Positions 1-57,623 of a DNA stretch of 64,000 nucleotides are shown one piece after another. The position numbers and the translations under genes were made by a program. The DNA lies in IMG/VR virus record IMGVR_UViG_3300045988_107814, positions 64,001-128,000 of that record; one strand, 5' to 3'. A model generated the notes under the pieces. The model was not told the origin of the DNA. It searched no databases and saw only the letters and a program-made list of their open reading frames with translations. Within the stretch, counting starts at the first letter, position 1. Every line of letters begins with the position of its first letter. Source of the stretch: a virus.

Positions 1-2174
1 ATTGGATCTTGTTCATCTGGATCAAGAATCAATTGTGCAACACTTTGAGAATATTCGTTTACATTAGTCATCATCTGGTTAGTATTTGTAATATTTAAGA
101 ACATTGGTGGCGGTAATACTACAGATAACTGAATGTTATCATCAAACTCATTATTATAAATCTTATTAAATATACGAGTAAGATTCTTCTGATATTTACT
201 TTGACGATTATATACTTTTCTTAAAAACTTACTAGAAGACATAGTTAACTGAGAAGAATAATCTACAGAATTACGCATCTGAATCATTTCCATAGGAACA
301 TCTGTGCTATTAACAGCCATTTCTTCAAGAGATGTCATAAACTCAGTTTGCCATTCTACTTGTTGACCTTGCATAACTTCAAAATCAATAGGAGCCTGAC
401 CACCTGGACTTCTAGGAATAATATAATCATTAAACATACCAGTTATATTCAAGATATGGTTAATATTCTCAATCTGTCTAATACCAAAGTTACCTTTCTT
501 AATCTGATTGATAGTATTAAGTAATGTCTTTGAAATATTAGTATCTACGGTTTGATTTACATAATATACACGTTTATCTTGTGCTCTTGTCATGTTCCAA
601 ATAGAATGCGTAATATACATAGCACAGTACAATGTTGCTGGGAACATTGCTTTATCTAGATCAGAAATACCTCTATGAGTATCTTTGTTCATATTAAAAT
701 ATACATGTTCCATATCATCGGGTGGAATAAATGTAACTCTAACCTTATTCATATGAGAACTGTTATTATCATAATTATATTTAAGAACTGTATAAATTTC
801 ATTTCTTAAATCTTGATTGGCGTTAATAAACTTAGCATCAATAAAATTAGAAATCTGATTAGCAAGAAATCTAATAATAGTATTCTGCTTATTAGATTGA
901 TCTAGCATACTATTTGTAGAAAGAATAGAATTAGATCCTTTTAAAGACATTGTAGGATCTTGCATCTTATCGTAATCACCTACTGGATTATAAGGACCAT
1001 CCACTTCAATATAATAATAACCAAAACAATACTCTTCAATATAGATAGGAATAACATGTTTACGTTCTAATACCTTTACAATAGTACCAGGTACATTAAT
1101 AAACTTATCATCCTTTGTCTTTCTCTTAGCAGTGTTCTTATCTACTAATCCATCTTGTCCTCTATCATCAAATCCTTCAAATGACAAATCATCTTTAATA
1201 GTCTTCTGAAATCTTCCCTTTACAACATCACGTATATTTTCAGCTGATTCAAGGATTGTTTCTTCAGAAAAATTTGCACCTTCATAATTCAATGACATTT
1301 CGTTCAATGATTGACAAGCTTTTTCAAATCTCATTGTATTTTCTACTACAGAGTTAATTACACCAGTATAACATTCCAATTCAATATTATCCAATCCAGT
1401 CTCTTTAAACATTTCTGGAGTAATATCTTTTGGCAATTCATCCATTTGAATATTACCTGATTCTGTTATAATAGTAGATTCTTTGATATCTAATTCAGCA
1501 CGAGTATTATTCTTTTGCTTTAATAATCTAGCTACTGCCTTCTTATATGGTACAACATAAACAAATGCTTCACCATACTTAGACGCTTGTTCATAAATCT
1601 CATCTGTTAAATCTTGGAACTTATAAGTTTCTTTAATAAACTTAATATGCTCATTATATGTTTCAGAATCATTTGTGATATTTGATGAAGTGATATTAAT
1701 ATAATCTTTAGAAAAATGGTCTGCTGATAGCACATTGTCTTTTCTAGTATCTAATGCCTCTTGCAATCTTGGCATGTATTTTAGAATAGTATCAATCTTG
1801 TTATCATAATCAAATACAGTAGTTGTATTATTGATAAATCCCATTAATCCAGCTTCTATAACTTGACTATCATTAATAAGAGATTCTAAACTTTTACCAG
1901 ATTCTTTATCACCAGGCTTTAAATTACTACCTTGCCGCTGCATTCTAGAATATAGAGTGCTCATAGTTCCTTTACCTGTATTATCCATATTAACAGAAAC
2001 TATGTTATCTATAGAAGAGTCAAGTTTAGATTTAATAGATTCAAGATCTTGTTTATTAGAAGGCTGTGAATAATATGTCTTACTATATAGATTATCTAAG
2101 TTATTTTGAATGGTATTGGAAAGTCTATTAATAATACCACTAGATGATTTTTTCTTATCATCTTTTTTAGCCAT
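1..2174 (-). CDS. portal protein, partial (C-terminal end lies beyond the left edge)
   Basis: Absent from the supplied ORF track (no stop inside the window). The minus-strand frame from the ATG at 2174-2172 stays open to base 1 (about 724 codons), with GGAGG 7 nt upstream. It translates as MAKKDDKKKSSSGIINRL... The core segment HRGISDLDKAM..MTRAQDKRVYYVNQTVD..MFNDYIIPRSPGGQAPIDFEVMQGQ..FMTSLEEMAVNSTDVPMEMI follows the pattern I know from T4 gp20-type portals (G-x-S-x-L, R-x-x-x-R-R-V-F-Y-x-D, E-D-Y-F-x-P, L-x-G-G, x-V-P). Confidence 0.65.
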   Translation of the reverse strand, partial: MAKKDDKKKSSSGIINRLSNTIQNNLDNLYSKTYYSQPSNKQDLESIKSKLDSSIDNIVSVNMDNTGKGTMSTLYSRMQRQGSNLKPGDKESGKSLESLINDSQVIEAGLMGFINNTTTVFDYDNKIDTILKYMPRLQEALDTRKDNVLSADHFSKDYINITSSNITNDSETYNEHIKFIKETYKFQDLTDEIYEQASKYGEAFVYVVPYKKAVARLLKQKNNTRAELDIKESTIITESGNIQMDELPKDITPEMFKETGLDNIELECYTGVINSVVENTMRFEKACQSLNEMSLNYEGANFSEETILESAENIRDVVKGRFQKTIKDDLSFEGFDDRGQDGLVDKNTAKRKTKDDKFINVPGTIVKVLERKHVIPIYIEEYCFGYYYIEVDGPYNPVGDYDKMQDPTMSLKGSNSILSTNSMLDQSNKQNTIIRFLANQISNFIDAKFINANQDLRNEIYTVLKYNYDNNSSHMNKVRVTFIPPDDMEHVYFNMNKDTHRGISDLDKAMFPATLYCAMYITHSIWNMTRAQDKRVYYVNQTVDTNISKTLLNTINQIKKGNFGIRQIENINHILNITGMFNDYIIPRSPGGQAPIDFEVMQGQQVEWQTEFMTSLEEMAVNSTDVPMEMIQMRNSVDYSSQLTMSSSKFLRKVYNRQSKYQKNLTRIFNKIYNNEFDDNIQLSVVLPPPMFLNITNTNQMMTNVNEYSQSVAQLILDPDEQDP

Positions 2175-2196: not shown

Positions 2197-2209
2197 TTAA
2201 TAGATTGTT
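2197..2209 (-). promoter_or_regulatory. candidate phage promoter, AACA-N3-TAWTAA class
   Basis: The minus strand reads AACAATCTATTAA, 22 nt upstream of the portal ATG. The same 13-nt pattern occurs upstream of three other structural-type genes (12905, 43799, 49604). Confidence 0.3.
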
Positions 2210-2253
2210 GATTTGATTAGTTTTTGTCATTTTGAAATAATTAATCAATTTAG

Positions 2254-2405
2254 TTATATATAATTATAGTGAATAGAAGATAGATTATAGGCTATTATTA
2301 TAAAAGCTATTCGGTCTGGATGCTCGGAGACCTTAAACTGAGCAATGGATGTATAAACTTTGGGGTTAATTTACTATGATCCCACGACGTTAAAGGGAGG
2401 CCAAT
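2254..2405 (+). promoter_or_regulatory. conserved promoter plus 5' leader element, copy B
   Basis: Blocks shared with copy A (24935-25080, minus): TATATAATTATAGTGAATAGAAGA (23/25 identical), a hairpin (ggtct..agacc, 2313-2332), TGTATAAA (2350-2357) and ATGATCCCACGACGTTAAAGGGAGG (2376-2400, 21/24 identical), which runs into the SD and ATG of the 2406 gene. Confidence 0.55.
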
Positions 2406-2927
2406 ATGGTAAAAGACTTTAACACGAACAAGCAATTCAAGCTGACTGAAAGGGAAAATAAAAATCCTAATCAGTCAATATGCTGGAATTGTCAAAACGC
2501 AGTTCCATCTGCAACAACTGGTTGTTGCTGGTCAAGGAACTTTATGCCTGTTAAGGGATGGGAAGCTAAACCCAACCTTGATATGAGATCCTTTAGGATT
2601 AAAAAATGCCCGCTTTTCAAAGAAGAAACTCCTGAAAGTAGGCAAGGAAATTTATGCAAGTATGATTCTGCTTGCATAAAACTAGCGGAGCATATCATTA
2701 AAAGTGAAATATCTCATTATAGAGAAATCTTGAGACAGTATTCACAAGCTCCACTCTACAGTAAGGATAGTCAGAAAGTTGCTGGAGAACTTCATTGCAT
2801 AGAAAGATATTTGTGTAGTGAAGTCTATGCAAACCTTACTATGAGATTGGTAGACCTTAAAGACTTCTGCAATCAACTCAGAAGAGAATATGGGATCGAA
2901 CCGATGGACGAATATTTCGTTTATTGA
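2406..2927 (+). CDS. Cys-rich small protein (putative zinc-binding, possible regulator)
   Basis: 173 aa, with AAAGGGAGG 6 nt before the ATG. It has a cysteine cluster CWNC-x10-GCCW...KKCP with FMPVKGWEAKP. I recall similar small proteins in temperate Firmicutes phages, but from memory only. It lies in a locally GC-richer two-gene island. Confidence 0.6.
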   Translation: MVKDFNTNKQFKLTERENKNPNQSICWNCQNAVPSATTGCCWSRNFMPVKGWEAKPNLDMRSFRIKKCPLFKEETPESRQGNLCKYDSACIKLAEHIIKSEISHYREILRQYSQAPLYSKDSQKVAGELHCIERYLCSEVYANLTMRLVDLKDFCNQLRREYGIEPMDEYFVY

Positions 2928-3520: not shown

Positions 3521-4150
3521 TTATAAATCCAGAAAATTCATAAATGTTTGTATGTCAAGATTATCCTTATGAGATATAAACTCAACGATGAAATTATAGT
3601 TATTATTAAGATTATATATTCTAGCATCTAAATCCGTCTTTTTAGTGCCAGGTAACATACTCGGAGTTAAATATATAACCTTATTCTTTAATATATATCT
3701 AGAAGCTCCATCTGCTGTCTTTCTTAATAAAACGTCATTATAAAATCTCTCATCATTATTTAACCCAGAAATATAATCTGTATCAACACAAGATCTAATA
3801 TAAGAACTCAATTCCTCAAGAGTACTAATTGATTTGTTAAAAGAAGTCACTGCATTATATCTTGTAATAGAATCAAAATTTTCAAGAATTCCAATGTCTG
3901 TTTCGAATCCAACAGTTTTATCATATACAACATCTGTAGAATAAATCTTGTTAAAATATTTATCAGAAAGATTATTACACTTAGTCATTATAATATTTCC
4001 TGGATTAGTTACAAACAATATATTTCCAAATATATTGTGTCTAATGACATAAAAGTATTTATTTGTGTTTGTCTTAATCTTCATGCTTTTCAAATATGAT
4101 TTAAATATGGTAGAACTATTTTTGAGATCTTCTCCAAATATATTATCCAT
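3521..4150 (-). CDS. hypothetical protein
   Basis: 209 aa. Its ATG overlaps the stop of the upstream polymerase fragment in TAATG (4148-4152), suggesting translational coupling. Confidence 0.75.
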   Translation of the reverse strand: MDNIFGEDLKNSSTIFKSYLKSMKIKTNTNKYFYVIRHNIFGNILFVTNPGNIIMTKCNNLSDKYFNKIYSTDVVYDKTVGFETDIGILENFDSITRYNAVTSFNKSISTLEELSSYIRSCVDTDYISGLNNDERFYNDVLLRKTADGASRYILKNKVIYLTPSMLPGTKKTDLDARIYNLNNNYNFIVEFISHKDNLDIQTFMNFLDL

Positions 4151-6192
4151 TATACAGTCTCTCCAATCTGTTTAGGTTTACTATACAAATAACCATCCTT
4201 AAGACTATCATAAATTTCTGTAAAGTTATTAAAATCAGAATTGTCAAAGTCAAACTTAGGTTGATTGAACTTGTCTTTATTTCCAGATACAATAGCATTT
4301 ACAATTTCCAAGTCACGTTTATTATTACATTTAATAAACATACTTCTATCATCCATTTCAGGACTACCAGAAATATCATCAAAATCATGATATGTCATAA
4401 TTCCACTAGGATATTTCACTGTTGTAAAATACTCAATAATATCATCATACATCTCTTCATATCCAGCAAAATGGAACCAACGACTAAAGAATTCAATCCA
4501 GTTATGAGATTGTAGATCATCCATAAATTGTCCTTCTCGTTTCCATTTAACATCATCACGTCTAAATCTATTTTCAAATTCATATACCTTATTAGGAATA
4601 TTTACATGTCCAATCAAAGTTGTTCTAGACATATTAAATTCAGATGTGATAGATGGATACAAAGCTTTATAATCAAAGTCATCCAAGTTATCAAAGATTG
4701 AAATTGGAACACCATTAATTTTCATCTTAGAATAGTCACTGTTATATTTAGGATCCGCAACAAATGCTCCAGGGAAATTAACTTTAGGATTGTTTTGATT
4801 TGTGTTGTTTCCTATAATCATACCATAGTTATAATATGATTTAGCGGCTCTATTTTTAAGATATACTGTCTGACGATAAATCTTAGACCAACGAGTATTA
4901 TCAAGTAATACATTATTGTATGCTGAATCTATATCATTAACTTTGAATTCAATACAATACTGAACAATAGTATCCATAATATTATAAAATACAAATGTTT
5001 CATAATCTTTATATGGAAGATCAGCAAGTTTATTTGTAATATGACTATAATCAAGCTTCTTTACACCACAAGTAATTTCGCCGATATAATCCAATCGATA
5101 ATTTGCAATTGCCTTTTGACCTTTACGTCTAGATGCAAAGTGAATCATTTGATCAAGATATACAGAATAACTACTAATCTTTGCGAAATCATTACGTTCT
5201 TCATATTTGAACTGATTTCTTTCGTCAATCATATACTTTACTTCTTTATATTTAAAATCTGGACTACACATTATACCTTTAGGATTATATCCAAGATTAA
5301 TAATTCTTTGGATAATATACGGAATATCGAAAGCCATATTCCAAGCAAGTACAATATCAGGTTTAATATTGTTGATATAATTAAATAGATGCTTTAGCAT
5401 TATAATCTCATCTTTCTCATCATAGAAATGAAATTGTACAGTCATCTTATCTACTTTATATTTTCTTGCTTGTTTAGATCCACCTACAGCATTGATAAGA
5501 AAACTCTTTAATTTATTATGAAGAGCAGGAGTATGAGTTTCTTTTTCAAACTTTTCAATCAAAGGATTCTTATCATTTCTCAATAAGAATGAATGAACAA
5601 CTAATGACTGATCATCAATAAAAGACACTGCATTAATCGGACACTCACCCAACGAAACAAAATCTCCTTCACAATCAATGATATCAGCCTCAATATCAAG
5701 AAATGATTTAGTTGGTTTGGTATAGCTATTTTCATATGTGTGAGAAAATTGAAATCTAATATTATCTTCAATATCCATATCAGACATAAGAACTCTAGGA
5801 TCATAGTTACACATTGTTCTATTTCCTAATCTATTACCATTTCTGATATTATCATAGAATTTATTAAGAAGTCCTAATCTCTCAGCAATATCTTTCTGTA
5901 ACTGTTGATATGGAACAATTATACATTTACAATCATCTTTCATTGCATATTCCAAAGTATAATTTGGAATTTCTTGTCCATCAAGAAGCATATAATATTC
6001 ATAACTAGGATCAACAATAGTTTCAAGAAATTTCTCTCCTGTATTACAATCCTTGATAATTAAATCAATTGCTCCTGGTTGCCATTTACCAGACAAATCC
6101 TTTCTAGGATAATGGTAAATAGTATTCAACAAAGATAATGGATATCCTTTTGGATATTGACCTATTAAAAAATCATTATCATAATACTTCAT
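4150..6192 (-). CDS. family B DNA polymerase, N-terminal fragment (N-terminal domain, 3'-5' exonuclease, palm motif A)
   Basis: 680 aa, with GGAGG before the ATG. Carries ExoI FLDIEADI (5680-5703), ExoII WNMAFDIPYI, ExoIII YNIMDTIV and motif A DFDYKALYPSI (4648-4680). Motifs B and C are absent. Confidence 0.85.
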   Translation of the reverse strand: MKYYDNDFLIGQYPKGYPLSLLNTIYHYPRKDLSGKWQPGAIDLIIKDCNTGEKFLETIVDPSYEYYMLLDGQEIPNYTLEYAMKDDCKCIIVPYQQLQKDIAERLGLLNKFYDNIRNGNRLGNRTMCNYDPRVLMSDMDIEDNIRFQFSHTYENSYTKPTKSFLDIEADIIDCEGDFVSLGECPINAVSFIDDQSLVVHSFLLRNDKNPLIEKFEKETHTPALHNKLKSFLINAVGGSKQARKYKVDKMTVQFHFYDEKDEIIMLKHLFNYINNIKPDIVLAWNMAFDIPYIIQRIINLGYNPKGIMCSPDFKYKEVKYMIDERNQFKYEERNDFAKISSYSVYLDQMIHFASRRKGQKAIANYRLDYIGEITCGVKKLDYSHITNKLADLPYKDYETFVFYNIMDTIVQYCIEFKVNDIDSAYNNVLLDNTRWSKIYRQTVYLKNRAAKSYYNYGMIIGNNTNQNNPKVNFPGAFVADPKYNSDYSKMKINGVPISIFDNLDDFDYKALYPSITSEFNMSRTTLIGHVNIPNKVYEFENRFRRDDVKWKREGQFMDDLQSHNWIEFFSRWFHFAGYEEMYDDIIEYFTTVKYPSGIMTYHDFDDISGSPEMDDRSMFIKCNNKRDLEIVNAIVSGNKDKFNQPKFDFDNSDFNNFTEIYDSLKDGYLYSKPKQIGETV

Positions 6193-6235
6193 ATATTTTA
6201 CCTCCGTCTTTCTTAACTAACGCATTGCGTAACTT

Positions 6236-6380
6236 AATGACTATTATATATTAGTTTGTCAATGTATAAAAATCGAAAATAACTCCTCACGGTACCCGAC
6301 AACCGTGAGGAATCAAAATAAATTAACAGAGGAAAACAAACTCATAAGAGGAAATCATGTCCCAACCAGACCTTAAGGTA
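6236..6380 (+). promoter_or_regulatory. degenerate third copy of the leader element, with a GC-rich hairpin
   Basis: Contains TGTATAAA (6263-6270), a 9-bp hairpin tcctcacgg-tacccgacaa-ccgtgagga (6284-6311) with no T-run, and ATCATGTCCCAACCAGACCTTAAGGTA (6354-6380), which resembles the ATGATCCCA..GAC.TTAAAGGGA block of copies A and B. It sits in a divergent intergenic region. Confidence 0.35.
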
Positions 6381-6430
6381 ATATTTCAACCTTATTTAAA
6401 TGTTCAAAAATATTAGCGATTTATATGAAA

Positions 6431-6446
6431 AACATCTCTATAATTA
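6431..6446 (+). promoter_or_regulatory. candidate phage promoter, AACAT-N3-TATAAW class
   Basis: AACATCTCTATAATTA is 15/16 identical to 25128-25143 and ends 23 nt before the ATG at 6470. Confidence 0.4.
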
Positions 6447-6469
6447 GCACATAAAGGAGGAAACATTAT

Positions 6470-7420: not shown

Positions 7421-7483
7421 TCTATATATTATTATAATGATTACATGAAGTAATCAAAATTTTACTTTTAAGGAGTTTAAATT

Positions 7484-9243: not shown

Positions 9244-11856
9244 ATGAGTCTAACGTATAAAGACATTATTGTGCGTCAGAGAAATCTTTTATCTGAAGTA
9301 TATACTTGTGATACTAATGTATTGCAATTATATAATTCAATAAAAGAGAATTATTCTTTTGCCAAGGCTAAGTTATTTTTAGAGCATTGGTATGGGCTTA
9401 GAGTAGAGGATGTTGCTATCAATAAAGTATTAGAAGTATTTACTATTATTGCTGACAATGATAATGAATCTAATATTAAAAATGCTGCTAATATTATTGA
9501 AAGTAATATTATTCCAAAACTTCGTAATGCTAAACAAACAAATATGCTTAACCATTATAAACGTGGTTGGATTAAGCATAAACACACATCTATGCTTAAT
9601 GATACTAAAGATAATGAAACAGCAGTATCTAGAGCAAAAGCAAATAAAGGATATTTAGGAAATTCATTACATCCAAATAGAAAATATAAGAGAGATATAT
9701 ATGGTAGAAAAATGGGTGAAGTAAAGAAAGCCAACTCTCAAGAAAATGGTAGTGAAGAAGGACAACAAGACAACCAAAAAGTAACAGAAGAATGTTTTAA
9801 TAGATTTATTGCTAAAGCATTTGTCAATGAACAATGCGATAGAGTTTTGACAAATCATAGTAAATTAACAAGACGATTTAATCTAGATAGTATTATAAGA
9901 AAATGTCCTCTAGATCAAGCATCATTACAAGAGTGTGTATATAATATATGTAATCTTATAGATACTTATGATGCTCCTATTGGAGTAAAGTATGATATCG
10001 CTCTTGAAAATATCATGTATTTAATGAATAAAAACTGTGTTCCTGTGAGCAATACATTCATTATCGAAACAGTTACAGATTATTTTTTAATGTCTGAAAA
10101 TGAAAATCTTACTAATACAGCAAAGATTCATGATATGGTATATATTATTGAAAATTCTAAATTCTTTACAGAAGATGAATTAAAATGTGTATCTTATTTA
10201 TATGAAGATGAACAAGCTATTATCGAAGCTGTAGAGAATGAAGAAGATATAGATCGAGAACCATTAGAAGAAAATAAAGTACATGATATGTTTATGAAAT
10301 ATAAGAAAAAGAAAATAATTACATTAAAAAAGAAACAAAAGGTAGAATCTCTTAAAATTAAAAAAGAGATTCATGACTTTAAAAAACAACACAATAAATC
10401 TATCGAAAAATTTAAAGTTTCGATATCTAGAATTTTTGTTAATAGTCCAGAAGGTATTATTAATGAACTTCCAGATATATTTGCATTTGTTAGATTAGGA
10501 ATTGTTGTTGGTGGTTTTGCTATTAATCCTATTCTTGGTGTAATTACATTAGTAACTGGATTCTTTTTAAAAATGAAAGTATCTAGAGATAGAATGGAAA
10601 AAGTATGTGCTCAGTATGAAAAAGAACGTGATCATTATAAAAAGAAAATGAATGAAGCAACTGACGAAAAGAAGAAAAAGAAATATGAAGAACTGTATAA
10701 ACAGTATAAAAGTGATCTAAATAAATTAGAAATGTATAGAGATGAACTATATACAGAAAAAGAAAATGATAAGAGAATGGAAGAAAAATACGCTAAAGAA
10801 GCTGAAAATAATAATGATGATTTCGACTTTGATTTTGATATGGATTTTAATTTTGATGAACAGACTGCAATAGAATATACAGAAAGATTAGCTACATTGT
10901 ATGAGCAATTATCTTATGCTAAAGGAAATCTAATGAAAGCAGTATCTAGTAATATAAGTAATATGGATAGTAATGATATATATGGTATATCAGAAGCTAT
11001 TAAATTATGTAATGATATTGTGGATTGTCCAAGATATGTATCTATCCTAGAAGATGATTTATCAAGAACAAGAGCAAATAAATCTATATCATATATTTCA
11101 TCATTACAGAAGATTGATGCTATTAAAACATGTATATCAGATATAGATAAGATCAAATATAATGGTTTATTAGAAAATGCTTATGTAATAAACGATGACA
11201 CTGTTCAAAATGATATTATATATATTTATAAAACTCTAAAATGTAAATATGATATCATTGATGATACTATTGATTATATAACTAGTGCTATTACAGAAGC
11301 TAAAGATGAAAAATCTGGTATGTCATTTATGAGTAAAATGAAAATAGCATCTGAAAATCTTAGAAGAACAATGTTAAAAGCAAAAGATAAAGACAAACAA
11401 CTCAGTATGAAACTAGATAGCGAATTAAACAGAGTTACTAAGTCTGCTAAGAGAGCTATGATTAGTGATAGTAGAGAAAGTATTATTCGTGGTTCATTCT
11501 TACCATCTGCTTCTAAGTGTATTCATATCGCTCTAGCTTCTGGTGTTGCAGCATTATTTAGCCCAGTATTCGCAGTTATTGGTCTTATTGGATACATCGG
11601 TTGTTCTAAATCTTTAACAGAAAAAGAGCGTAATCTTATTCTAGATGATATCGATATAGAAATAAAAATGTGTGATAAATACATGAAAATTGCTGAAGAT
11701 AAGGATGATTTAGTTGCAGTTAGAGAAATAATGAAAACAAAACGAGATTTGGAAAGACAACGTGCTAGAATTCTATATAATAAAAAGTATATCTTCAAAG
11801 GAAAGAAACAATATGACATGCCTGATTTGAAAAAGAAACATGAAAATGATGATTAA
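9244..11856 (+). CDS. large coiled-coil protein with two glycine-rich hydrophobic hairpins
   Basis: 870 aa, with a TAAGGAGG RBS. Has K/E-rich heptad-like stretches. The hydrophobic Gly-rich segments are IFAFVRLGIVVGGFAINPILGVITLVTGFFL (about 10474-10570) and CIHIALASGVAALFSPVFAVIGLIGYIGC (about 11518-11605). Confidence 0.75.
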   Translation: MSLTYKDIIVRQRNLLSEVYTCDTNVLQLYNSIKENYSFAKAKLFLEHWYGLRVEDVAINKVLEVFTIIADNDNESNIKNAANIIESNIIPKLRNAKQTNMLNHYKRGWIKHKHTSMLNDTKDNETAVSRAKANKGYLGNSLHPNRKYKRDIYGRKMGEVKKANSQENGSEEGQQDNQKVTEECFNRFIAKAFVNEQCDRVLTNHSKLTRRFNLDSIIRKCPLDQASLQECVYNICNLIDTYDAPIGVKYDIALENIMYLMNKNCVPVSNTFIIETVTDYFLMSENENLTNTAKIHDMVYIIENSKFFTEDELKCVSYLYEDEQAIIEAVENEEDIDREPLEENKVHDMFMKYKKKKIITLKKKQKVESLKIKKEIHDFKKQHNKSIEKFKVSISRIFVNSPEGIINELPDIFAFVRLGIVVGGFAINPILGVITLVTGFFLKMKVSRDRMEKVCAQYEKERDHYKKKMNEATDEKKKKKYEELYKQYKSDLNKLEMYRDELYTEKENDKRMEEKYAKEAENNNDDFDFDFDMDFNFDEQTAIEYTERLATLYEQLSYAKGNLMKAVSSNISNMDSNDIYGISEAIKLCNDIVDCPRYVSILEDDLSRTRANKSISYISSLQKIDAIKTCISDIDKIKYNGLLENAYVINDDTVQNDIIYIYKTLKCKYDIIDDTIDYITSAITEAKDEKSGMSFMSKMKIASENLRRTMLKAKDKDKQLSMKLDSELNRVTKSAKRAMISDSRESIIRGSFLPSASKCIHIALASGVAALFSPVFAVIGLIGYIGCSKSLTEKERNLILDDIDIEIKMCDKYMKIAEDKDDLVAVREIMKTKRDLERQRARILYNKKYIFKGKKQYDMPDLKKKHENDD

Positions 11857-11870
11857 TGGAGGTGAATAAT

Positions 11871-12884
11871 ATGGATTATTTGGAAGGTCTTAGAAATATA
11901 ATTCTTAATGAATTGAATATTGGTGGTCAAGAAGTACAAGAAGAAAATGATGATGATAACGGAGATCAGAATTTTATGGATGACGATGATAATCCGCCAG
12001 CAGAAGAACCTGCACCCGCTGAAGATGCTCCAGCACCAGATGAAGGAGAAGATGATACATCCGATGATGGTGATCAAAACTTCATGGATGACGATGGTGG
12101 TGGAGATGATGCACCTGTTGAAGATGCTCCTACAGACGACGGATCATCTGATGATGGAGATCAGAATTTTATGGATGATGATAGTGGTGAGGGAGATACA
12201 TCTGATACTGGAGAAGAACCTGCTAGTGATGATGGATCCGCTGAAGATGATGGCGATCAAAACTTCATGGATGACGATAGTAGTGGAGAAGGAGGAGACT
12301 CTGCTGAAGGTGGTGGAGATGATTCTGGATCTGAAGAAGCTCCTGAAGATAGTGGTGATCAACAAGAAGGAGAAGAACAGCCTGAAGGTCAAGATTATGA
12401 TATTAATAAGATTGAAGACGAATTGTTCTCTAGTTTAACACCAGAACAAATTGCTATTAAAAATCATGAATTAAAAGATCAATTCATTGAACTGTATTCT
12501 ATTATCGGTAGTACTTTAGTCAGAATCAATGATATATCTAAATCTAATGAAAATATTAATGTACTAAAATTTATTACAGAAAAATTATTAGAGCTTAGAG
12601 AAATGATTGACTTTAATATTACTACTGCATATCAGACTAGAACTTATATTGAAAATAATATTATTTATCAACAATGTATAGCAACTCTTAATGCTATAGC
12701 AGATATTATTGATAATATTCCTAAATTAGATGGTAGAGACGAAGATCAAGAAGAAGATGAAGAAGACAAGAATGGTATTTCAGTAGAAGATGACGATGAA
12801 GAAGAAGTAAAAGCACTAGACATTTCTGACACTAGTGTAAGCAATTATCAAGAAGAATCTACAGATTATAATTCTTTATTTTAA
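11871..12884 (+). CDS. highly acidic repeat protein, scaffold-like by position
   Basis: The ORF track starts at 11856 (TAATG overlap with the previous stop). The ATG at 11871 has GGAGG (11858-11862) 8 nt upstream. The N-terminal 180 aa or so are mostly D/E/G with four GDQNFMDDD repeats, the centre is helical, and the tail is acidic. It lies directly upstream of the capsid gene. Confidence 0.7.
   Translation: MDYLEGLRNIILNELNIGGQEVQEENDDDNGDQNFMDDDDNPPAEEPAPAEDAPAPDEGEDDTSDDGDQNFMDDDGGGDDAPVEDAPTDDGSSDDGDQNFMDDDSGEGDTSDTGEEPASDDGSAEDDGDQNFMDDDSSGEGGDSAEGGGDDSGSEEAPEDSGDQQEGEEQPEGQDYDINKIEDELFSSLTPEQIAIKNHELKDQFIELYSIIGSTLVRINDISKSNENINVLKFITEKLLELREMIDFNITTAYQTRTYIENNIIYQQCIATLNAIADIIDNIPKLDGRDEDQEEDEEDKNGISVEDDDEEEVKALDISDTSVSNYQEESTDYNSLF
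11961..12278 (+). repeat. four in-frame GDQNFMDDD repeats
   Basis: The units lie at 11961-11987, 12069-12095, 12156-12182 and 12252-12278. Units 1 and 3 use gatcagaatttt and units 2 and 4 use gatcaaaacttc, so a two-unit block was duplicated. Confidence 0.9.
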
Positions 12885-19414: not shown

Positions 19415-21637
19415 TTAACCCATGAAAGTAAACAGTTCATTAGGCTTTCCTTCATTTTCCACAACCGGATTTTCTGCAAGGAATTTCTGAGGCTGAACCA
19501 TATAAAGAAGATCGTATCCAGACGGTTCACTCTTCTTATAGCTTAACGGGTTATAAAGCATTCTTGCAATATCCTGAGACTGAAGAGCTACAGAAATACT
19601 CGGATGAGTTTGAATAGCTTTCTTCAATGTCAGAATTGTATAATTCTGCTGATTAGGAACTGACCAGTCTGGAACGTCAATAATATTTTCAGCAGAACGA
19701 ATCTGATTCATAATGATAATCTCAAGATGAACACTCATAATTCCATCAAGACCAATGTTGTTAAGCTTATCACTCAACGCTTCAAGGAATGTCTCTGCTG
19801 TATAGCTATCTGTATTTGACTTTCTATCGATAACTCTAATAACAGATTCAAGTCTCTCAGACATATCATCATTATGAATACTTTCAAGATCAAACAAAGG
19901 ATAATCTTCACCGATAAGATTGTTTACTGGAATAGTAATATCTTCATCAACATCATTAATATTCTTGAGTTTAAGATACTCAATAAGCCATTCGCTTAAT
20001 TGGAAATTATCCAAGTTAGTAGACTTGATAGGATATTCCATACCAGTAGATTCATTTCTGAGATAAAATACATTTACATATTTAATAATCTCATCAAATG
20101 TTGCATCAATATCGTCATCATCAGATTCATCACTTTCGATAGCAGCAAACACTTCTTCTTGAATGTCACCATCTTTAATAATGAATTTCCATTTCTTAGC
20201 ATCTTCAAATTCTGGATTAATATAGATAGTACCATTATCAACTACAATAAGCTGTTCAAGTTGTTCCTTAGTAAGCATACTAGTATCAAATGTCAACTCA
20301 TCAATCTTTGCTTCGAGAAGATGTTTTGCAGACAACATCATCTGAGTCAACGGTTCTGTCAGATTTGTTACACTATAAATTCCAATATTTACAGCAGGAA
20401 TAATATTGTATAACTCACCCATACACTTTCTACAAACACCTCTACCCTCTGCGGCAGATCTACATTTGATTGGGCTTCTTAAATAGATTTCCTTTCCAAT
20501 AAGATTAGAATTAACTTTAGTGATATTATAAACATCACTAGTTCTATATTCCATTCCCATTGGGTCCAGTCTGTAATATCTATCGGCAATCTTCTTTAAT
20601 GCTACCTCATCAGTAACTTTGTACTTCAAGAAATTACGAGTACCACAATCATATCCAGGATCAATCTTATTTGTATATGGGATAGTATACTTCTTCGTTC
20701 TAGAACAATTAAGAATCATAATTCTACTAAACTGACCAGAACGAGCAGTATTTTTCTTTGACAGAATCTGTGCAATTCTTGCAATCAAAGACTCAAGAAT
20801 ATGAAATGCAACATTAGTAGCACCACCACTAATATAATTAGTGTTTACTACATAAGGGAAAATACCACCCTCGCCATTAGGCTTGACACCAATATTGATA
20901 TACATTTCACGAGCCTGTTTAGGTTTAATACCTTCTTTTGCTCTAAATGCATCAGATAAGCAATGATCTCTACCAATATATTTCTTAGCATTTACAATAT
21001 AATCGATAAGACGATTCATATCTTTTAATGCTTCTGCATTCATCTGCTCAGGTGGGAACTGAGAATAATAGTTGGTCTTATGTCTGTCCATAATTTCTTT
21101 AAAACCAGGGCAGTTATTATACATAAGAATAAAGTCTTCGTTGTTGATAGAATTGTTAAAGAACCACGCAAACTTATCAACAAACTTAAGATTCCTCAGA
21201 GTATCATAGATAATTCTATTAAGATTATGAATAATCATAATATCACTATCATTACCACATCTTTCTCTTGTAGGAATAATAGCAAATCTATCAATATACT
21301 TCTTGATATAGCCGTTGGTAATACCGTCCTTATTAAAGAATACATGATACGGTTTAATTGTTTGACCAGTTTTAATAATAAACTGCCAAACAATGATGTT
21401 GATAAGAGAATAAGACAACGGCAATCTTACTCTCATATTATTATCGAAAACGAATTCAATTTTTGTATTCTGAATTGCCTGAATTTCAATATAATCCAAG
21501 AATACATTTTTCAAATCATTAACATAATCATCAATGTTAGATTCATTGATATCACTTGTTCTAATGGTAACAGAATTACCATTAATCACTGGTGTAAAAA
21601 CACCATAATCATAAATTTGGGCAACGTTAGTGTTCAT
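19415..21637 (-). CDS. multisubunit RNA polymerase beta-prime subunit, C-terminal half
   Basis: 740 aa.
- KPNGEGGIFPYVVNTNY matches the KPDG..I..PI.ANF region.
- NTARSGQFSRIM (within 20701-20760) matches the bridge-helix TANSGYLTRRLV.
- DCGT is conserved.
- LRSPIKCRSAAEGRGVCRKCMGELY (about 20413-20480) matches the VRS..C....GVC..CYG zinc site.
- NLTEPLTQMMLSAKH matches the trigger-loop GEPGTQLTMRTFH.
- No NADFDGD catalytic loop is present, so this is only the C-terminal half. Confidence 0.8.
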   Translation of the reverse strand: MNTNVAQIYDYGVFTPVINGNSVTIRTSDINESNIDDYVNDLKNVFLDYIEIQAIQNTKIEFVFDNNMRVRLPLSYSLINIIVWQFIIKTGQTIKPYHVFFNKDGITNGYIKKYIDRFAIIPTRERCGNDSDIMIIHNLNRIIYDTLRNLKFVDKFAWFFNNSINNEDFILMYNNCPGFKEIMDRHKTNYYSQFPPEQMNAEALKDMNRLIDYIVNAKKYIGRDHCLSDAFRAKEGIKPKQAREMYINIGVKPNGEGGIFPYVVNTNYISGGATNVAFHILESLIARIAQILSKKNTARSGQFSRIMILNCSRTKKYTIPYTNKIDPGYDCGTRNFLKYKVTDEVALKKIADRYYRLDPMGMEYRTSDVYNITKVNSNLIGKEIYLRSPIKCRSAAEGRGVCRKCMGELYNIIPAVNIGIYSVTNLTEPLTQMMLSAKHLLEAKIDELTFDTSMLTKEQLEQLIVVDNGTIYINPEFEDAKKWKFIIKDGDIQEEVFAAIESDESDDDDIDATFDEIIKYVNVFYLRNESTGMEYPIKSTNLDNFQLSEWLIEYLKLKNINDVDEDITIPVNNLIGEDYPLFDLESIHNDDMSERLESVIRVIDRKSNTDSYTAETFLEALSDKLNNIGLDGIMSVHLEIIIMNQIRSAENIIDVPDWSVPNQQNYTILTLKKAIQTHPSISVALQSQDIARMLYNPLSYKKSEPSGYDLLYMVQPQKFLAENPVVENEGKPNELFTFMG

Positions 21638-21720
21638 TATAAATTCCTCCTAAAACTATTGTTATGTAATAGTTTTTGACAAAGTCATTTCCTATTACAT
21701 GTTAATAATATACTAATAAG

Positions 21721-21778: not shown

Positions 21779-22237
21779 TTAGTGACGAGTCTTGCTCATT
21801 TCCTTTGGTTGCAACTTAGGAGTATTGATATGCTTTTGGCCTTGACCAGAAACATACATACGCTGACCCTGGCGAGCTACAGTCTTAGCTTTGTTAGCAT
21901 ACTTCTTCTTAATAGCAGCTAAAAGCTTACGTTCCTGAATACGATTCTTTACAAGCTTCTTCCAAAGATTATCATTATTATCCTTGGCCAACTGTAAAGC
22001 AGCCATGCCTGTACGACGAGTCAAATCATCATTCTTATTTAAACGAACAATTGTCTTACGACTAATTTTCTTAGCTTCCTGAAGTACATCTGCATTTTCA
22101 AGAAGTTCACGCTTTTCTTCATCAGAATCAGAATAATGATCATCATAGAAGAAAGCTTCCTGAAGTTCATCCATATTTAAATACATCTGAACTTCTCTTG
22201 TGTCTTGAGCTAACTGCTCATTAGTATAAAGTCCCAT
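21779..22237 (-). CDS. small protein with acidic N-terminal and very basic C-terminal halves (MGLYT N-terminus)
   Basis: The ORF track starts upstream at 22276 (non-ATG start). The ATG at 22237 has GGAGG 9 nt upstream (152 aa). Codon usage is biased (ctg, cgt), and it has its own terminator and promoter-like motif, suggesting high expression. Confidence 0.7.
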   Translation of the reverse strand: MGLYTNEQLAQDTREVQMYLNMDELQEAFFYDDHYSDSDEEKRELLENADVLQEAKKISRKTIVRLNKNDDLTRRTGMAALQLAKDNNDNLWKKLVKNRIQERKLLAAIKKKYANKAKTVARQGQRMYVSGQGQKHINTPKLQPKEMSKTRH

Positions 22238-22299
22238 AGGATTAATCCTCCTTAATAAAATAAAATTTAATTGCAATTAAAAATATTTCGCATACTAAT

Positions 22300-22408: not shown

Positions 22409-24508
22409 ATGGACATTACTCAAATTGTTAAAAGTAAAACAACAGATCTTTATAAAAAAGATATGTTAGATGCACTTAAGTTATCTTTTCCAGGTATGAC
22501 AGAAACTGATTTAATGGAAGCTATTGATTATTCTATTACAAAAAGAGGTAGCGATAGTAAAGCATATCTAGATAATAACTATAAGAAAATAAGAGAAAAC
22601 AGAACTCTATTTGAAATTACTGATTATATTATACAGAGAGAACCAATCATTACAGTTTCAGGTGTAATGTTTAGAAAACATGGTTATTGTCCTAATCCTT
22701 TTGTAATGCTTATTCAGGAATTCTTGGAGCAAAGAGGTATTTATAAAAAGACAATGTTTAAATATCCTAAAGGTTCTGAGGAATTTGAAAAGTATAATAT
22801 TCTTCAGTTATCAGAAAAAGTATCTGGTAATGCAATGTATGGTGCTTCTGGTAATCATACAAGTATCTTTTATAATCTTTATGTTGCACAGAGTATTACA
22901 ATGCAAGGTAGAAGTTGTATTGCATCAGCTATTATGTTATTCGAAGCAACAATGGCTAATAATGTAAAGTTACTTAGTCTGAATGATGCGGTGACTTTTA
23001 TTACAAATATTAGACGTGAGCCTGTATTAAAGTATCCAGATGAATTGATTATTGATAAAGATAATTATGTAACTGTAGAAGAATGTTTCTTTAAGATTCT
23101 TTATAGTTCTGGATTCTATTGGATTCCTACAGAAAAAGAAATGACTCTTATTTGGGATATTCTTAATCAGTGTAATCAGCATGAATTGAATAAGATTTTC
23201 TATAAGAATAATCTATTTTGGTTTGTTGATAATAGCCTTGTTATGAACAAGATTATTTCTATTCTTTCTACTCTTGATGAGCCATTTATTGATCCTAATA
23301 GTCCTCCTGAATCTATTAAAGGTATGATGGATGAATTATATGATATGATCTATGAATGGGTTTATTATGATAAACAATATATGGATAGAATTGATAGAAC
23401 AGAAAATATGTACAGATGTGTATCTATGCTTACAGATACAGATAGCTGTTTTATTTCTTTTGATGGATGGTATAGATATATTCTTGATAAGACATTTAAT
23501 ATTCCTATGAAGATTAAAGAGCTTGAAATTGAAGAAAAAACAGGTGAAGTAAAGGAAGCATTTGATATAGGCTATGACTATGACTTTTATAAAGATGAAA
23601 TTATTGAAAGTCAGAATATTATTAGACCTGATGTAATTATTCCTCAGGTTGGTTTTCGTTGTAGTATCATCAATATTCTTGCAAGTATTATGGGAAGACT
23701 TGCTATTGATTATATGTGTAAGTATTCTGATAATTCTAATTCTACTATTTGTCATGATGGTTCTCGACGTAAAAGTTTCTTTATTCTTAAGAATGAATTC
23801 CAACTTAAACGTGCTTTGATTACAGATGGGAAAAAGAATTATTGTGCATATCAAGAACGTCAAGAATCTAATATTATTCCAAAAGAAAAAGCTCTTGCAA
23901 TTACAGGCATGCCGATCAAAAAAGTAGGTGTTCCAGAATCTACAAAAGTTAGACTTCAAAAAATTCTTCTTGAACAAATTCTAGATAATCCTGGCGAAAT
24001 TTCTCAAGTAGAAATTGTAAAACAGTTAGCTATATTCGAAAAACAAATTATTCAAGCTATCGAAAATGGTAGTAAAGAATATTTTAAACCAGAAAGAATC
24101 AAAGCTAAAGATGCTTATGATAATCCTATGAGAGAATCTGGTGTTAAGGCCGCAATAGCATTTAACTTCCTCAAGGATGACGATATGGAAGCTATTGATC
24201 TTGATGAAAGAAATAGTATTCTAAATATTAAAGTAAATATTGATCTTAAAAATATTGAGAATATGAAAGATAGATATCCAGATGTTTATAAACGTGCTAT
24301 TGAACTAATGTCAACAAGAAAAGAATTTGAAAAAGGAATTACTGCTATCGCTATTCTAGACAATATGCAAGTACCTGAATGGATTAAGGAATATATTGAT
24401 TATACTACTATTGTAAATGATAATCTTAGACCATTTCCTTGCGAAGCCTTAGGTATTGATAGAATGGACAACAAGAATATTAATTATACTAATATTTTGA
24501 AGTTTTAG
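22409..24508 (+). CDS. family B DNA polymerase, C-terminal fragment (fingers motif B, palm motif C, thumb)
   Basis: 699 aa, with a TTGGAGG RBS. Carries motif B KVSGNAMYGASG (22817-22852), motif C MLTDTDSCF (23426-23452) and the KKNY (KxY) motif. It has no exonuclease motifs and no motif A. Confidence 0.85.
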   Translation: MDITQIVKSKTTDLYKKDMLDALKLSFPGMTETDLMEAIDYSITKRGSDSKAYLDNNYKKIRENRTLFEITDYIIQREPIITVSGVMFRKHGYCPNPFVMLIQEFLEQRGIYKKTMFKYPKGSEEFEKYNILQLSEKVSGNAMYGASGNHTSIFYNLYVAQSITMQGRSCIASAIMLFEATMANNVKLLSLNDAVTFITNIRREPVLKYPDELIIDKDNYVTVEECFFKILYSSGFYWIPTEKEMTLIWDILNQCNQHELNKIFYKNNLFWFVDNSLVMNKIISILSTLDEPFIDPNSPPESIKGMMDELYDMIYEWVYYDKQYMDRIDRTENMYRCVSMLTDTDSCFISFDGWYRYILDKTFNIPMKIKELEIEEKTGEVKEAFDIGYDYDFYKDEIIESQNIIRPDVIIPQVGFRCSIINILASIMGRLAIDYMCKYSDNSNSTICHDGSRRKSFFILKNEFQLKRALITDGKKNYCAYQERQESNIIPKEKALAITGMPIKKVGVPESTKVRLQKILLEQILDNPGEISQVEIVKQLAIFEKQIIQAIENGSKEYFKPERIKAKDAYDNPMRESGVKAAIAFNFLKDDDMEAIDLDERNSILNIKVNIDLKNIENMKDRYPDVYKRAIELMSTRKEFEKGITAIAILDNMQVPEWIKEYIDYTTIVNDNLRPFPCEALGIDRMDNKNINYTNILKF

Positions 24509-24577: not shown

Positions 24578-24934
24578 TTACTTTTCTTGTGCTATTTCCC
24601 TTGCTATTTCTTTAATTTGAATTTTCTTTACTAAATAAATAACAGAATCGTTGTATTCGAAGAACGAATCAAATAATTTTTCATCGGCTTCAATCTGACT
24701 TTTAAATGCACTATAGCCAGAATTAATAATTGAGTGTTCACGAATAAATAAGTTTTCTAACATATTAATTTTAGATTCGTTCCTTCGTTTAATAGCCTTT
24801 AAAAATGATAAAGAGTAAGTAAGGTCAAGCATATTCTTGCATTCGTAAGGAATATTTCCAACCTTAAACGACTTTTTGATTGCACGATGAAACTTATTTG
24901 CTGCCGAAATAGCTACCTTAATATCGTTGGTCAT
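24578..24934 (-). CDS. hypothetical protein
   Basis: 118 aa, with an AAAGGGAG RBS that is part of conserved leader copy A. Confidence 0.7.
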   Translation of the reverse strand: MTNDIKVAISAANKFHRAIKKSFKVGNIPYECKNMLDLTYSLSFLKAIKRRNESKINMLENLFIREHSIINSGYSAFKSQIEADEKLFDSFFEYNDSVIYLVKKIQIKEIAREIAQEK

Positions 24935-25080
24935 GATAATGCCTTTCTCCCTTTAATGTCTGGGATCATAAGTTTTATACAAACTTATGATTACTTGCCT
25001 TTTGACAACTGGAGTAATTTGCAAGTCTCCAGTTATTGATATAGATAGAATGTATTCTCCTATTCACTATAATAATATAT
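24935..25080 (-). promoter_or_regulatory. conserved promoter plus 5' leader element, copy A
   Basis: On the minus strand it reads, in order:
- ATATATTATTATAGTGAATAGGAGA (25056-25080)
- hairpin aactggag-12 nt-ctccagtt (25007-25034)
- hairpin ataagtt-tgtataa-aacttat (24968-24988), which carries TGTATAAA in its loop
- ATGATCCCAGACATTAAAGGGAG (24947-24969), running into the ATG at 24934. Confidence 0.55.
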
Positions 25081-25127
25081 AAAGCAATAAATAAAATCTT
25101 ACACTTCTGTATATTTCTTGTATCTTG

Positions 25128-25143
25128 AACATATCTATAATTA
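25128..25143 (+). promoter_or_regulatory. candidate phage promoter, AACAT-N3-TATAAW class
   Basis: AACATATCTATAATTA is 15/16 identical to 6431-6446 and ends 26 nt before the ATG of the giant gene. Confidence 0.4.
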
Positions 25144-25169
25144 AAGAGTGAAAGGAGGTCATTATTTAT

Positions 25170-42817: not shown

Positions 42818-43777
42818 TTACTTCTTCATATCTTTAAGCATCTTTTCAATATATGCTTCATCAACATTAATAATCTTTAAAGAATCTAATGCAGTTACAA
42901 ATGTACAAATAGTTTCACAATGTTCAACAATCTTATCCATATTAAGTCTGGAATTATCAACAAATACTTTACCAGCAGATTCATTTACAATAGCCGCTTT
43001 GGAAAGAGTGTATACCATTTGTTCCAGTACATTTTTAGTCTTACTGTTTCTAATATCAGTTGCTCTTCTCTTACCCAAAGCAATGTAACCTTCTTCAATT
43101 TTAGCAGCTTTCTCTTGTTCTTTCTTGCTGTTTACTTTATCGGCAAGTTTCTGTTTGTTATTTTCAACTTTCTGCTGAGTCTTAGATAAGGATGCTGCAA
43201 GTTCTGCTTTTTCACTCATATTAGTATTCATGAATTCAGCGGCTTGATCTTGTACTCTGTCAGTAATCTTATCAACAGCATCACCAACTTCAATCTTACT
43301 TAGCTTATCATAAAACTTGTCCTTATCTTTCTTATCAGGTTTAAAAGATTCAGGATTATCTTTATCAGCTCTTTCAAGAATAGACTCTACTGTAGTTTCA
43401 ATTACATATGCCATCTCAGACATAATATAAGAAGTACCTCTAAATTTCTTTAAAAGCTTCATAGAACCTTCTTCATTTACAAAGTTTGTTACTAACTGTC
43501 TTACTAACTTTTGATGATACTGTTCTCTTACAAGTACAGGATTTAAACAGTTATCTACAATAGCTACTAATCCTTCAGTAACATATGCATCAGTAAGCTT
43601 CTTTTTATAATCAATATAAGAATAATCTACTCTATTACGAGAATTAAGTTTATTCCAAATAGCAGCTCTGTCTGCGGCTTCAGATAAATAGGCTAATCTT
43701 TCTTTAGATTGATTGTAACTTTGTTTAGCCTCTTTTCTTGCAGCAGCTTCAAGCATAAGTTTAGTATCTTCGTACAT
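42818..43777 (-). CDS. hypothetical coiled-coil protein
   Basis: 319 aa, with an AAAGGAGG RBS. K/E-rich and helical. Confidence 0.75.
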   Translation of the reverse strand: MYEDTKLMLEAAARKEAKQSYNQSKERLAYLSEAADRAAIWNKLNSRNRVDYSYIDYKKKLTDAYVTEGLVAIVDNCLNPVLVREQYHQKLVRQLVTNFVNEEGSMKLLKKFRGTSYIMSEMAYVIETTVESILERADKDNPESFKPDKKDKDKFYDKLSKIEVGDAVDKITDRVQDQAAEFMNTNMSEKAELAASLSKTQQKVENNKQKLADKVNSKKEQEKAAKIEEGYIALGKRRATDIRNSKTKNVLEQMVYTLSKAAIVNESAGKVFVDNSRLNMDKIVEHCETICTFVTALDSLKIINVDEAYIEKMLKDMKK

Positions 43778-57567: not shown

Positions 57568-57600
57568 GCTGGGATACCTACAGGTGTCCCAGCCCTTTAT
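57568..57600 (+). terminator. rho-independent terminator
   Basis: gctgggatacc-taca-ggtgtcccagc stem followed by CCTTTAT. Confidence 0.65.
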
Positions 57601-57623
57601 ATTATTATATAGGAGGTAAGTAA

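Follow-up and report, generated by a model that had tools for sequence, protein, structure and literature searches.

A repeated early-promoter element with a predicted structured RNA leader upstream of unrelated genes in an uncultured gut jumbo phage

The messenger RNA (mRNA) of T4 gene 32 carries an H-type pseudoknot operator of autogenous control, which is bound by the gene's own product, a single-stranded-DNA-binding protein, and is followed by an unstructured A/U tract. To our knowledge, almost nothing is known about the fate of the early mRNAs made by the virion RNA polymerase (RNAP) in the jumbo phages of the AR9/phiKZ group. The subject here is a promoter-plus-leader element present in two copies, A and B, in a stretch of 64,000 nucleotides (nt) of the IMG/VR record IMGVR_UViG_3300045988_107814 (positions 64,001 to 128,000 of the record), referred to below as the window. 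The AR9 early promoter read by the virion RNAP has been experimentally defined as AAATATATATTAT-(6N)-G+1, and the same paper mentions, with reference to its Fig. S3, an unexplained motif in the early 5' untranslated regions (UTRs) (Lavysh et al. 2017, PMC5312081). The PeSL cassettes of T4-like phages are terminator-plus-promoter composites for the host sigma-70 RNAP, with the stem-loop placed before the promoter (Arbiol 2010, PMC2839356; Comeau 2014, PMC4122927). The 5'-terminal stem-loop stabilisers, such as those of E. coli ompA/papA and of the B. subtilis ermC/aprE type, have been reviewed (PMC3997798), and in phiKZ and 201phi2-1 the 5'-UTR-derived RNAs of conserved structure arise by premature termination and belong to a single orthologous late tail gene (PMC11512511).

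The element is here read, with a probability of roughly 0.6, as a modular cassette for early-gene expression, in which the RNA leader would control both the stability and the translation of the mRNA. Its copies and the genes behind them are as follows:

2233-2405 (+): copy A, upstream of the ATG at 2406
25103-24935 (-): copy B, upstream of the ATG at 24934
2406-2927 (+): gene A, a Cys-rich ORFan of 173 amino acids (aa)
24578-24934 (-): gene B, an ORFan of 118 aa, unrelated to gene A

The initial annotation, made from the letters alone, had proposed homologous promoter-plus-leader regions in front of these two genes with unrelated products, and both parts were borne out (BLASTP of gene A against gene B gives E=0.37). 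Block 1, ATATATWATTATAGTGAATAGRAGA, is identical at 23 of 25 positions, TGTATAAA is found in both copies, and the inverted stems ggtct/agacc and aactggag/ctccagtt are present as claimed. Block 4, ATGATCCCA(C)GAC(R)TTAAAGGGAG, is likewise homologous, with 22 of 24 columns identical and one 1-nt indel, but it does not end at the start codon in both copies, since in copy B it stops 12 nt short of the ATG and a second AAAGG lies at Shine-Dalgarno (SD) distance from the ATG. The two copies form the longest inverted repeat (I1) of the whole window, and for block 4 zero chance matches are expected. In the global alignment of A with B, the promoter plus leader gave z=7.9, with none of 1000 dinucleotide shuffles scoring as high, and the leader alone (after GAATAG) gave z=4.4, with 1 of 1000 shuffles as high. 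Neither the nhmmer profiles nor the covariance-model search found a third copy in the window.

Block 1 is well supported as a putative early promoter of the class that the injected virion RNAP recognises. The form TATATATWAT-N6-G is shared by the first ~25 nt of the element in both copies, with the following predicted features:

2255-2270 (+): copy A early promoter TATATATAAT with the 6-nt spacer TATAGT, fitting the AR9 consensus TATATATTAT-N6-G with 1 mismatch
2271 (+): predicted +1 of copy A, a G, placed by the AR9 consensus and by the helix that begins exactly there
25066-25081 (-): copy B early promoter TATATATTAT with the spacer TATAGT, the 10-mer being exactly the AR9 early consensus core
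25065 (-): predicted +1 of copy B, a G

The resemblance to the AR9/phiKZ early promoters thus extends over the AT-rich TATATATTAT, the 6 nt that follow and the G as +1, and homologous multisubunit RNAP subunits are encoded as well. The promoter part of the initial annotation therefore stands, its generic AT-rich promoter being replaced by the match to an AR9-type virion-RNAP early consensus. A sigma-70 promoter with a -35 box was rejected, as the scan finds none.

For the leader, a scan of public contigs for the promoter followed by GAATAG yielded a family of 51 leaders (single sequences are numbered L001 and so on), including those of clade 2, the syntenic ~214-kb relatives whose portal protein is 90% and whose polymerase is 82-87% identical at the aa level. 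The comparative evidence supports the view that ~130 nt after the promoter would be transcribed as a structured 5' leader of two types, A and B, which share one architecture:

2271-2312 (+): copy A 5'-terminal domain, GAATAG 2271-2276 paired with CTATTC 2307-2312 around the hairpin GATAG 2279-2283/CTATT 2292-2296
25038-25065 (-): copy B 5'-terminal hairpin, leader nt 1-28
2313-2344 (+): copy A H-type pseudoknot, stem S1 GGTCT 2313-2317/AGACC 2328-2332 and stem S2 TGCTCGG 2321-2327/CTGAGCA 2338-2344
24993-25034 (-): copy B H-type pseudoknot, S1 AACTGGAG 25034-25027/CTCCAGTT 25014-25007 and S2 ACTTGC 25026-25021/GCAAGT 24998-24993
2350-2357 (+): copy A TGTATAAA block, single-stranded, kept as RTATAAA in A-type relatives
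2361-2384 (+): copy A helix UGGGGU 2361-2366/AUCCCA 2379-2384, joining the C-run of block 4 to an upstream G-run
2375-2405 (+): copy A block 4 TATGATCCCACGACGTTAAAGGGAG, with the SD GGGAGG at 2395-2400, ending just before the ATG at 2406
24966-24990 (-): copy B hairpin H3, TCATAAGTT/AACTTATGA, with the loop TGTATAA
24935-24965 (-): copy B C-run UCCC 24965-24962, pairable with GGGA 24951-24948, then GAAAGG, the likely SD

The structured RNA leader reused before unrelated genes, as suggested at first, is upheld by the 51 related leaders, in which the helices are kept by compensatory and G-U changes; the 'hairpin with differing stems' is correct in that the stems differ between the copies, but the hairpin proved to be one stem of an H-type pseudoknot. 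In copy A its loops are short (L1 of 3 nt, L2 of 0 nt, L3 UUAAA). The pairing sequences vary widely among the relatives: L002 has a compensatory S1, AGTCT/AGACT, relative to copy A, L056 has S1 ATGGAG/CTCCAT and S2 ATCTGT/ACAGAT, and the B-type pseudoknot of clade 2 has S1 CAGGT/ACCTG and S2 TGATGC/GCATCA. The hairpin enclosed in the 5' domain of the A type has the general form GATAG/CTATY, while the 5' hairpin of the B type is kept in the relatives via A:U to U:A and G:C to G-U changes, one of its pairs being AU in 12 sequences, GC in 7 and GU in 1. The helix at +1 occurs also in L185 and L188, with compensatory changes between the two (GAGTAG/CTGCTC versus GAGTGG/CCACTC), so that it is predicted, on the strength of the inferred +1, for A, B, these two and the starts at 7439 and 21698 of the window; a perfect 6-nt complement within 50 nt is found at 3 of 7 predicted +1 sites versus a background of 2.5% (P=5e-4).

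The pseudoknot potential, taken as an exhaustive crossing-helix score and compared with dinucleotide shuffles (n=1000), exceeded the shuffles in five lineages (p=0.006, 0.039, 0.001, 0.004 and 0.003), with a Fisher combined value of 7e-8 for tests that are not fully independent, because the A lineages share S2. This scoring and a gap-free sub-alignment were used because neither the pseudoknot nor the helix of the G-run and the C-run could be aligned between the lineages with MAFFT; RNAalifold on the MAFFT alignment recovered only the 5' helix and CC/GG pairs. In the gap-free alignment, 3 of 6 pairs of S2 and 1 of 8 pairs of S1 are compensatory and 94.6% of the cells are paired, which none of 500 shuffles reached, and the slid controls gave 0-1 compensatory pairs. 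The copy B fold has z=-3.8 versus shuffles. A covariance model built from the clade-2 B leaders only matched copy B of the window at E=6.6e-4 and nothing else, aligning it end to end yet misaligning its longer S1.

Just upstream of the ribosome-binding site (RBS), both types carry the conserved block YUAUGWUCC(C)A. In copy B, its UAUG and the shared TGTATAAA are accounted for by the hairpin H3 (as RNA, CAUAAGUU/AACUUAUG with the loop UGUAUAA, and CGUAG/CUAYG in clade 2), of which TGTATAAA forms the loop and the block-4 TATG the 3' arm. It had been proposed that TCCC..GGGA could pair and occlude the SD in both copies, which is borne out only in part. For the B type, the variation is compatible with UCCC/GGGA, being UUCCC/GGGAA in clade 2 and co-deleted to UUCC/GGAA in L026, with an A-G mismatch in L009 and L012 and a register shift in L015, but that GGGA lies upstream of the likely SD. 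For the A type, the arms of the G-run and the C-run covary at three positions (UGGGGU/AUCCCA, UGGAUC/GAUCCA, UGGAAC/GUUCCA), which supports the pairing of the C-run with the upstream G-run and not with the SD.

In the proposed mechanism, the virion RNAP would read the early promoter and start at the G at +1, and the helix that begins from nucleotide +1 would leave no free 5' end. The paired 5' end, together with the pseudoknot, may protect the first transcripts from 5'-end-dependent decay (cf. PMC3997798). The C-run would be always paired with a G-run, the upstream one in the A type and the one beside the SD in the B type, and the region of the C-run and the SD might set or gate the initiation of translation, possibly by binding a phage factor through which the early genes are later shut off. 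The likeness to the known 5' stabilisers lies in a helix at or a few nt from +1, so that no single-stranded 5' end is left for RppH, RNase E or RNase J1; however, those are leaders of single genes, while here a multi-copy family of two types includes a pseudoknot, and the stabilisation is suggested by analogy. As in T4 gene 32, an H-type pseudoknot is located in a phage mRNA leader close to the 5' end, with tens of nt between it and the RBS, but here the leaders head the unrelated genes A, B and C (described below) and others, and the region from the pseudoknot to the RBS forms hairpins.

The promoter class, the multi-copy reuse, the conserved architecture with compensatory change and the recombination are shown or well supported; a number of points weigh against this reading. 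A stabilising or translational role is pure inference, and the +1 site and the early timing are taken over, by analogy, from a phage whose RNAP is only ~30% identical. The hexamers resemble a sigma-A -10 box (TATAAT-N6-G), without a -35, so that the host RNAP is possible by sequence. The 5' helices are thermodynamically weak, and in a nested-structure model the fold of copy A by itself does not stand out from shuffles (z=-0.8). All four compensatory pairs of the gap-free alignment come from one sequence, L056; the A-type pseudoknot is near-invariant in the clade of the window, with non-significant covariation there (102/500); and no significant pseudoknot was found in the clade-2 A-type variants L168, L138 and L078 (p=0.29-0.62). 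Finally, the AR9 early UTRs lack such structures, so that the structure is no general requirement of the promoter class: the 8 annotated ones are mostly 30-45 nt long, unstructured and without a +1 helix, in contrast to the ~130-nt structured leaders after two promoters here. On the same grounds, the idea that the +1 hairpin is common to the AR9 type in general was rejected, and the leader would thus be specific to this clade of gut phages.

A further-reaching proposal, which is tentative and rather unlikely as it stands, is that the leaders make up a new class of phage RNA devices marking the immediate-early transcripts of the virion RNAP, as an exoribonuclease-resistant or factor-recognised module and a mobile regulatory cassette. 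If true, such a device, made of the paired 5' end and the pseudoknot, would protect the early mRNAs during the destruction of the host mRNA, or time their shut-off or export, and the mobile cassette, in spreading through the genome, would allow the immediate expression of ORFan genes newly taken up.

Among the rival explanations, a riboswitch-like or factor-responsive switch, with the pseudoknot as an aptamer or a protein site whose occupancy would direct the C-run either to the SD-proximal G-run (OFF) or to the upstream G-run (ON), seems improbable. The compact H-type pseudoknot with A-rich L3 loops does resemble small riboswitch aptamers, block 4 is the most conserved segment of the leader across types and clades, and copy A has three mutually exclusive pairings, namely AGACCUUAAA with UUUGGGGUUA (p=0.018), UGGGGU with AUCCCA, and UCCC with GGGA. 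However, no Rfam 15 family was found, either at the gathering score in the window or even at E<=1 for the leaders in four related loci; the loops and junctions are unconserved between A and B and the stems are of 5 versus 8 bp, which a shared ligand pocket would not tolerate; and most A-type relatives no longer have the alternative pairing AGACC/GGGG.

The cassette reading is supported further by the distribution of the leaders. The orthologues of gene A (69-99% aa identity) and of gene B (66-99%) keep their leaders, and the B leader remains 90% identical where its open reading frame (ORF) is 78% identical in nt and 66% in aa, so that conservation is higher in the leader than in the ORF. An A-type leader is found also before a third unrelated gene (gene C, 260 aa), beside the divDNAB and PIF1 genes, on contigs of 190-220 kb; the contig IMGVR_3300045988_128423 (214.8 kb) holds at least 7 copies, 3 of the A type and 4 of the B type, and, the window included, the leaders precede at least 5 unrelated ORFs. 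The anchored gap-pattern scans of IMG/VR added two more A-type copies and no new pseudoknot variants, and the scan for the exact block-4 pattern returned nothing. The slot opposite the portal gene is occupied in the window by an A-type leader with gene A, and in clade 2 by a B-type leader with an unrelated ORF of 149 aa; reciprocally, the slot opposite the giant gene holds a B-type leader with gene B in the window and an A-type leader with an unrelated ORF of 173 aa in clade 2. The 5' module of copy A, from its start to the pseudoknot, is 99% identical to the leader of gene C versus 85% to the orthologous gene-A leaders, while the 3' module tracks the gene, and leader/gene mosaics are seen in L012 (leader of the L009 type, gene B of the window type) and in L001. 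Because of these swaps of leader type, incongruent identities of the 5' and 3' modules and mosaics, it is supported that the cassette fronts ORFan genes that change rapidly, in slots flanked by conserved late genes, and would be exchanged by recombination. About 10 independent contigs from metagenomes terminate within the promoter or the leader (L001-L008, L014, L016, L189), and the repeated element evidently breaks the short-read assemblies of these phages.

The same distribution could be read at the level of DNA only, as a strong promoter with a patch of recombination homology like the T4 PeSLs, whose leader RNA would be functionless. The same 5' module on different genes, the mosaics, the leader types swapped between slots and the assembly breaks at the element all agree with it, yet it is about as improbable as the switch: the compensatory and G-U changes keep the helices on the sense strand only, which argues for an RNA rather than a DNA function, and the architecture persists with no sequence in common among the stems of different lineages, a constancy that homology for recombination would not call for. 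The greater conservation of the leader than of the ORF also speaks against it. With PeSLs the element shares short repeated early-promoter and stem-loop cassettes, dispersed among variable ORFan genes as junctions of gene-swapping recombination. It differs in that the structures lie downstream of +1 in the mRNA leader, with the pseudoknot and the RBS included, and in the virion-RNAP type of the promoter, while, on the sense strand, neither promoter is preceded by a terminator-like site of the kind that precedes the PeSL promoter.

Still less probable is a 5'-UTR-derived small RNA acting in trans, as in phiKZ and 201phi2-1, with the ORF expressed by read-through. Structured small RNAs of this origin, made by premature termination, have been reported in related jumbo phages (PMC11512511), the likeness being a conserved structured 5'-UTR RNA in the same broad group, and the 5' module exceeds the 3' module in both conservation and mobility. 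In contrast to them, the leaders here are multi-copy and early-promoter-linked, run straight into the SD and the start codon in every copy, and have no intrinsic-terminator-like site in either copy on the sense strand, on which ground an intrinsic attenuator was rejected as well.

Tandem promoters, with the block-4 TATG as a phiKZ-type middle/late promoter (G as +1) or TGTATAAA as a host -10 box, would make the blocks DNA sites and are very improbable. The phiKZ late promoter is indeed TATG with G as the start, and the 'continuous' genes of AR9 bear an early and a late promoter (PMC5312081). However, TATG is TACG in most clade-2 B leaders and covaries as the 3' arm of H3 (CGUAG/CUAYG; CAUAAG/CUUAUG), the late genes of this phage use AACA-N6-TA, a motif that occurs in neither leader, and the sigma-70 scan finds nothing at TGTATAAA or TATG; hence both were rejected as internal promoters. 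The least credible of all, and rejected, is a short upstream ORF or leader peptide in block 4 (ATGATCCCA…, MIP…) regulating the main ORF, which reads MIPRR* in copy A and MIPDIKGRKALS* in copy B with its stop overlapping the main ATG, but which has no SD before its ATG, has ACG for that ATG in most clade-2 copies and is unconserved in frame, length and peptide among the A-type relatives.

Returning to the expression cassette, what appears new is the two-type family of pseudoknot leaders tied to virion-RNAP early promoters before jumbo-phage ORFans, with no match to a curated RNA family; the promoter class, structured leaders and shuffling cassettes are already known kinds. A multi-copy pseudoknotted leader on a subset of early genes would offer a way into the post-transcriptional control (stability, translation, shut-off) of uncultured gut phages and indicates how such phages may plug fast-evolving ORFans into a ready-made expression cassette by recombination. 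It is among such ORFans that functions of host takeover and anti-defence are usually found. Genes A, B and C have no match in Pfam, PHROGs, NCBIfam or PDB, the scans of IMG/VR with protein patterns of genes A and B gave nothing, and the AlphaFold2 model of gene A reached a pLDDT of only 45. The repeat also explains the assembly breaks at these sites, and the motif pair TATATATWAT-N6-G (early) and AACA-N6-TA (late) lets the temporal classes be predicted in these metagenomic genomes.

Both motifs recur in the window, where the 15-mer TATATWATTATARTG has 13 matches at <=2 mismatches, of which 7 fall between genes and face one; the RNAP subunit gene and that of the second polymerase are two of the genes so preceded. 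The AR9-type late motif AACA-N6-T[AG] stands 28-47 nt upstream of 9 genes versus ~0.7 expected by chance, including both divergent partners of copies A and B and several virion-protein genes:

7425-7455 (+): early-type promoter TATATTATTATAATG, with a short leader bearing the +1 hairpin GATTAC-ATGAA-GTAATC, the long leader being absent
21666-21712 (-): early-type promoter with 2 mismatches, upstream of the RNAP beta'-like gene, its leader opening GTAATAG...CTATTAC at +1
2198-2209 (-): late motif AACAATCTATTA, 35 nt upstream of the portal-like gene
25128-25139 (+): late motif AACATATCTATA, 42 nt upstream of the giant gene 25170-39161
1-2174 (-), 6470, 21779-22276 (-), 25170, 39252, 41679, 42399, 42818-43777 (-), 48255-49571 (-): genes with the late motif
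1-2174 (-): portal-like gene, divergent partner of copy A
25170-39161 (+): giant virion-type gene, an ORF of 4663 aa, divergent partner of copy B
19415-21637 (-): RNAP beta'-like gene (phrog_3015, E=4e-53)

Copy A lies in the divergent intergenic region 2175-2405 and copy B in 24935-25169, each opposite a large late-type gene, so that in each case an early and a late gene appear to diverge from the region, as has been described for AR9, where early promoters likewise stand opposite late virion genes in divergent intergenic regions and the late motif is AACA-N6-TA. This distant phage thus seems to share both promoter classes of AR9.

By its gene content, the window is taken as part of an uncultured ~215-kb AR9/phiKZ-like gut jumbo phage, because of the RNAP beta' match, the split family B DNA polymerase and relatives known from metagenomes only, on contigs of 213-220 kb. 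The best tblastn matches of the RNAP beta'-like protein are the RNAP beta' genes of Listeria phage LPJP1 and Bacillus phages AR9 and PBS1, at ~30% identity, and it is also ~30% identical to subunits of other phiKZ-like jumbo phages. The polymerase is split into an exonuclease-domain gene at 4150-6192 (-) and a 'divergent PolB' gene at 22409-24508 (+), with 16 kb between them on opposite strands, the product of the latter matching Pfam divDNApol. A capsid-like gene is present, the G+C content is ~30%, and strong AAGGAGG ribosome-binding sites and many hairpin terminators are found. The close relatives come mostly from human-gut studies. Megablast of 8 kb against phage and plasmid collections gave no match, the tRNA scan of the window found none, and a protein look-up past the window end gave only one 1.7-kb contig. 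The homologues of the 4663-aa ORF at 25170-39161 (+) on related contigs bear Peptidase_C39_2 and Phage_lysozyme2 domains.

Several side observations concern the promoter and its relatives. The early-type match TATATTATTATATAG at 57598-57623 has its predicted start at the first G of the GGAGG SD of the gene at 57624, which would give an almost leaderless-plus-SD mRNA. In clade-2 loci (L164 8960-9030, L168, L175 and others) the early promoter lies inside the palindrome ATTCACT-TATATATAATTAT-AGTGAAT, preceded by the conserved TTTGTAAAACT; neither occurs in the window copies, and they could be an operator. Another contig group (L042, L052, L077, L106, L110, L123) combines the identical promoter and GAATAG with a leader of its own, in which GAATAGA/TCTATTC closes a variable hairpin and a covarying hairpin comes next (GTTATTAC/GTAATAAC, GTTGTTAC/GTAATGAC, GTTATAC/GTATAAC). 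In L015 (1-1900), the gene-B leader is joined not to the giant gene but to other upstream neighbours (146-aa, 190-aa and PTL_trimer-like genes), which points either to genome rearrangement or to an assembly chimera formed at the repeated promoter.

Elsewhere in the window, the genes at 53497-54828 and 54926-56197 are tandem near-duplicates of ~1.3 kb with blocks 97-99% identical, which points to a recent tandem duplication, and the gene at 11856-12884 carries at least 4 acidic repeats (DDGDQNFMDDD…) in its first half. The divergent intergenic region of 277 nt at 6193-6469 contains a strong hairpin without a T-run, CCTCACGGT-ACCCGACA-ACCGTGAGG, together with a late-type motif.

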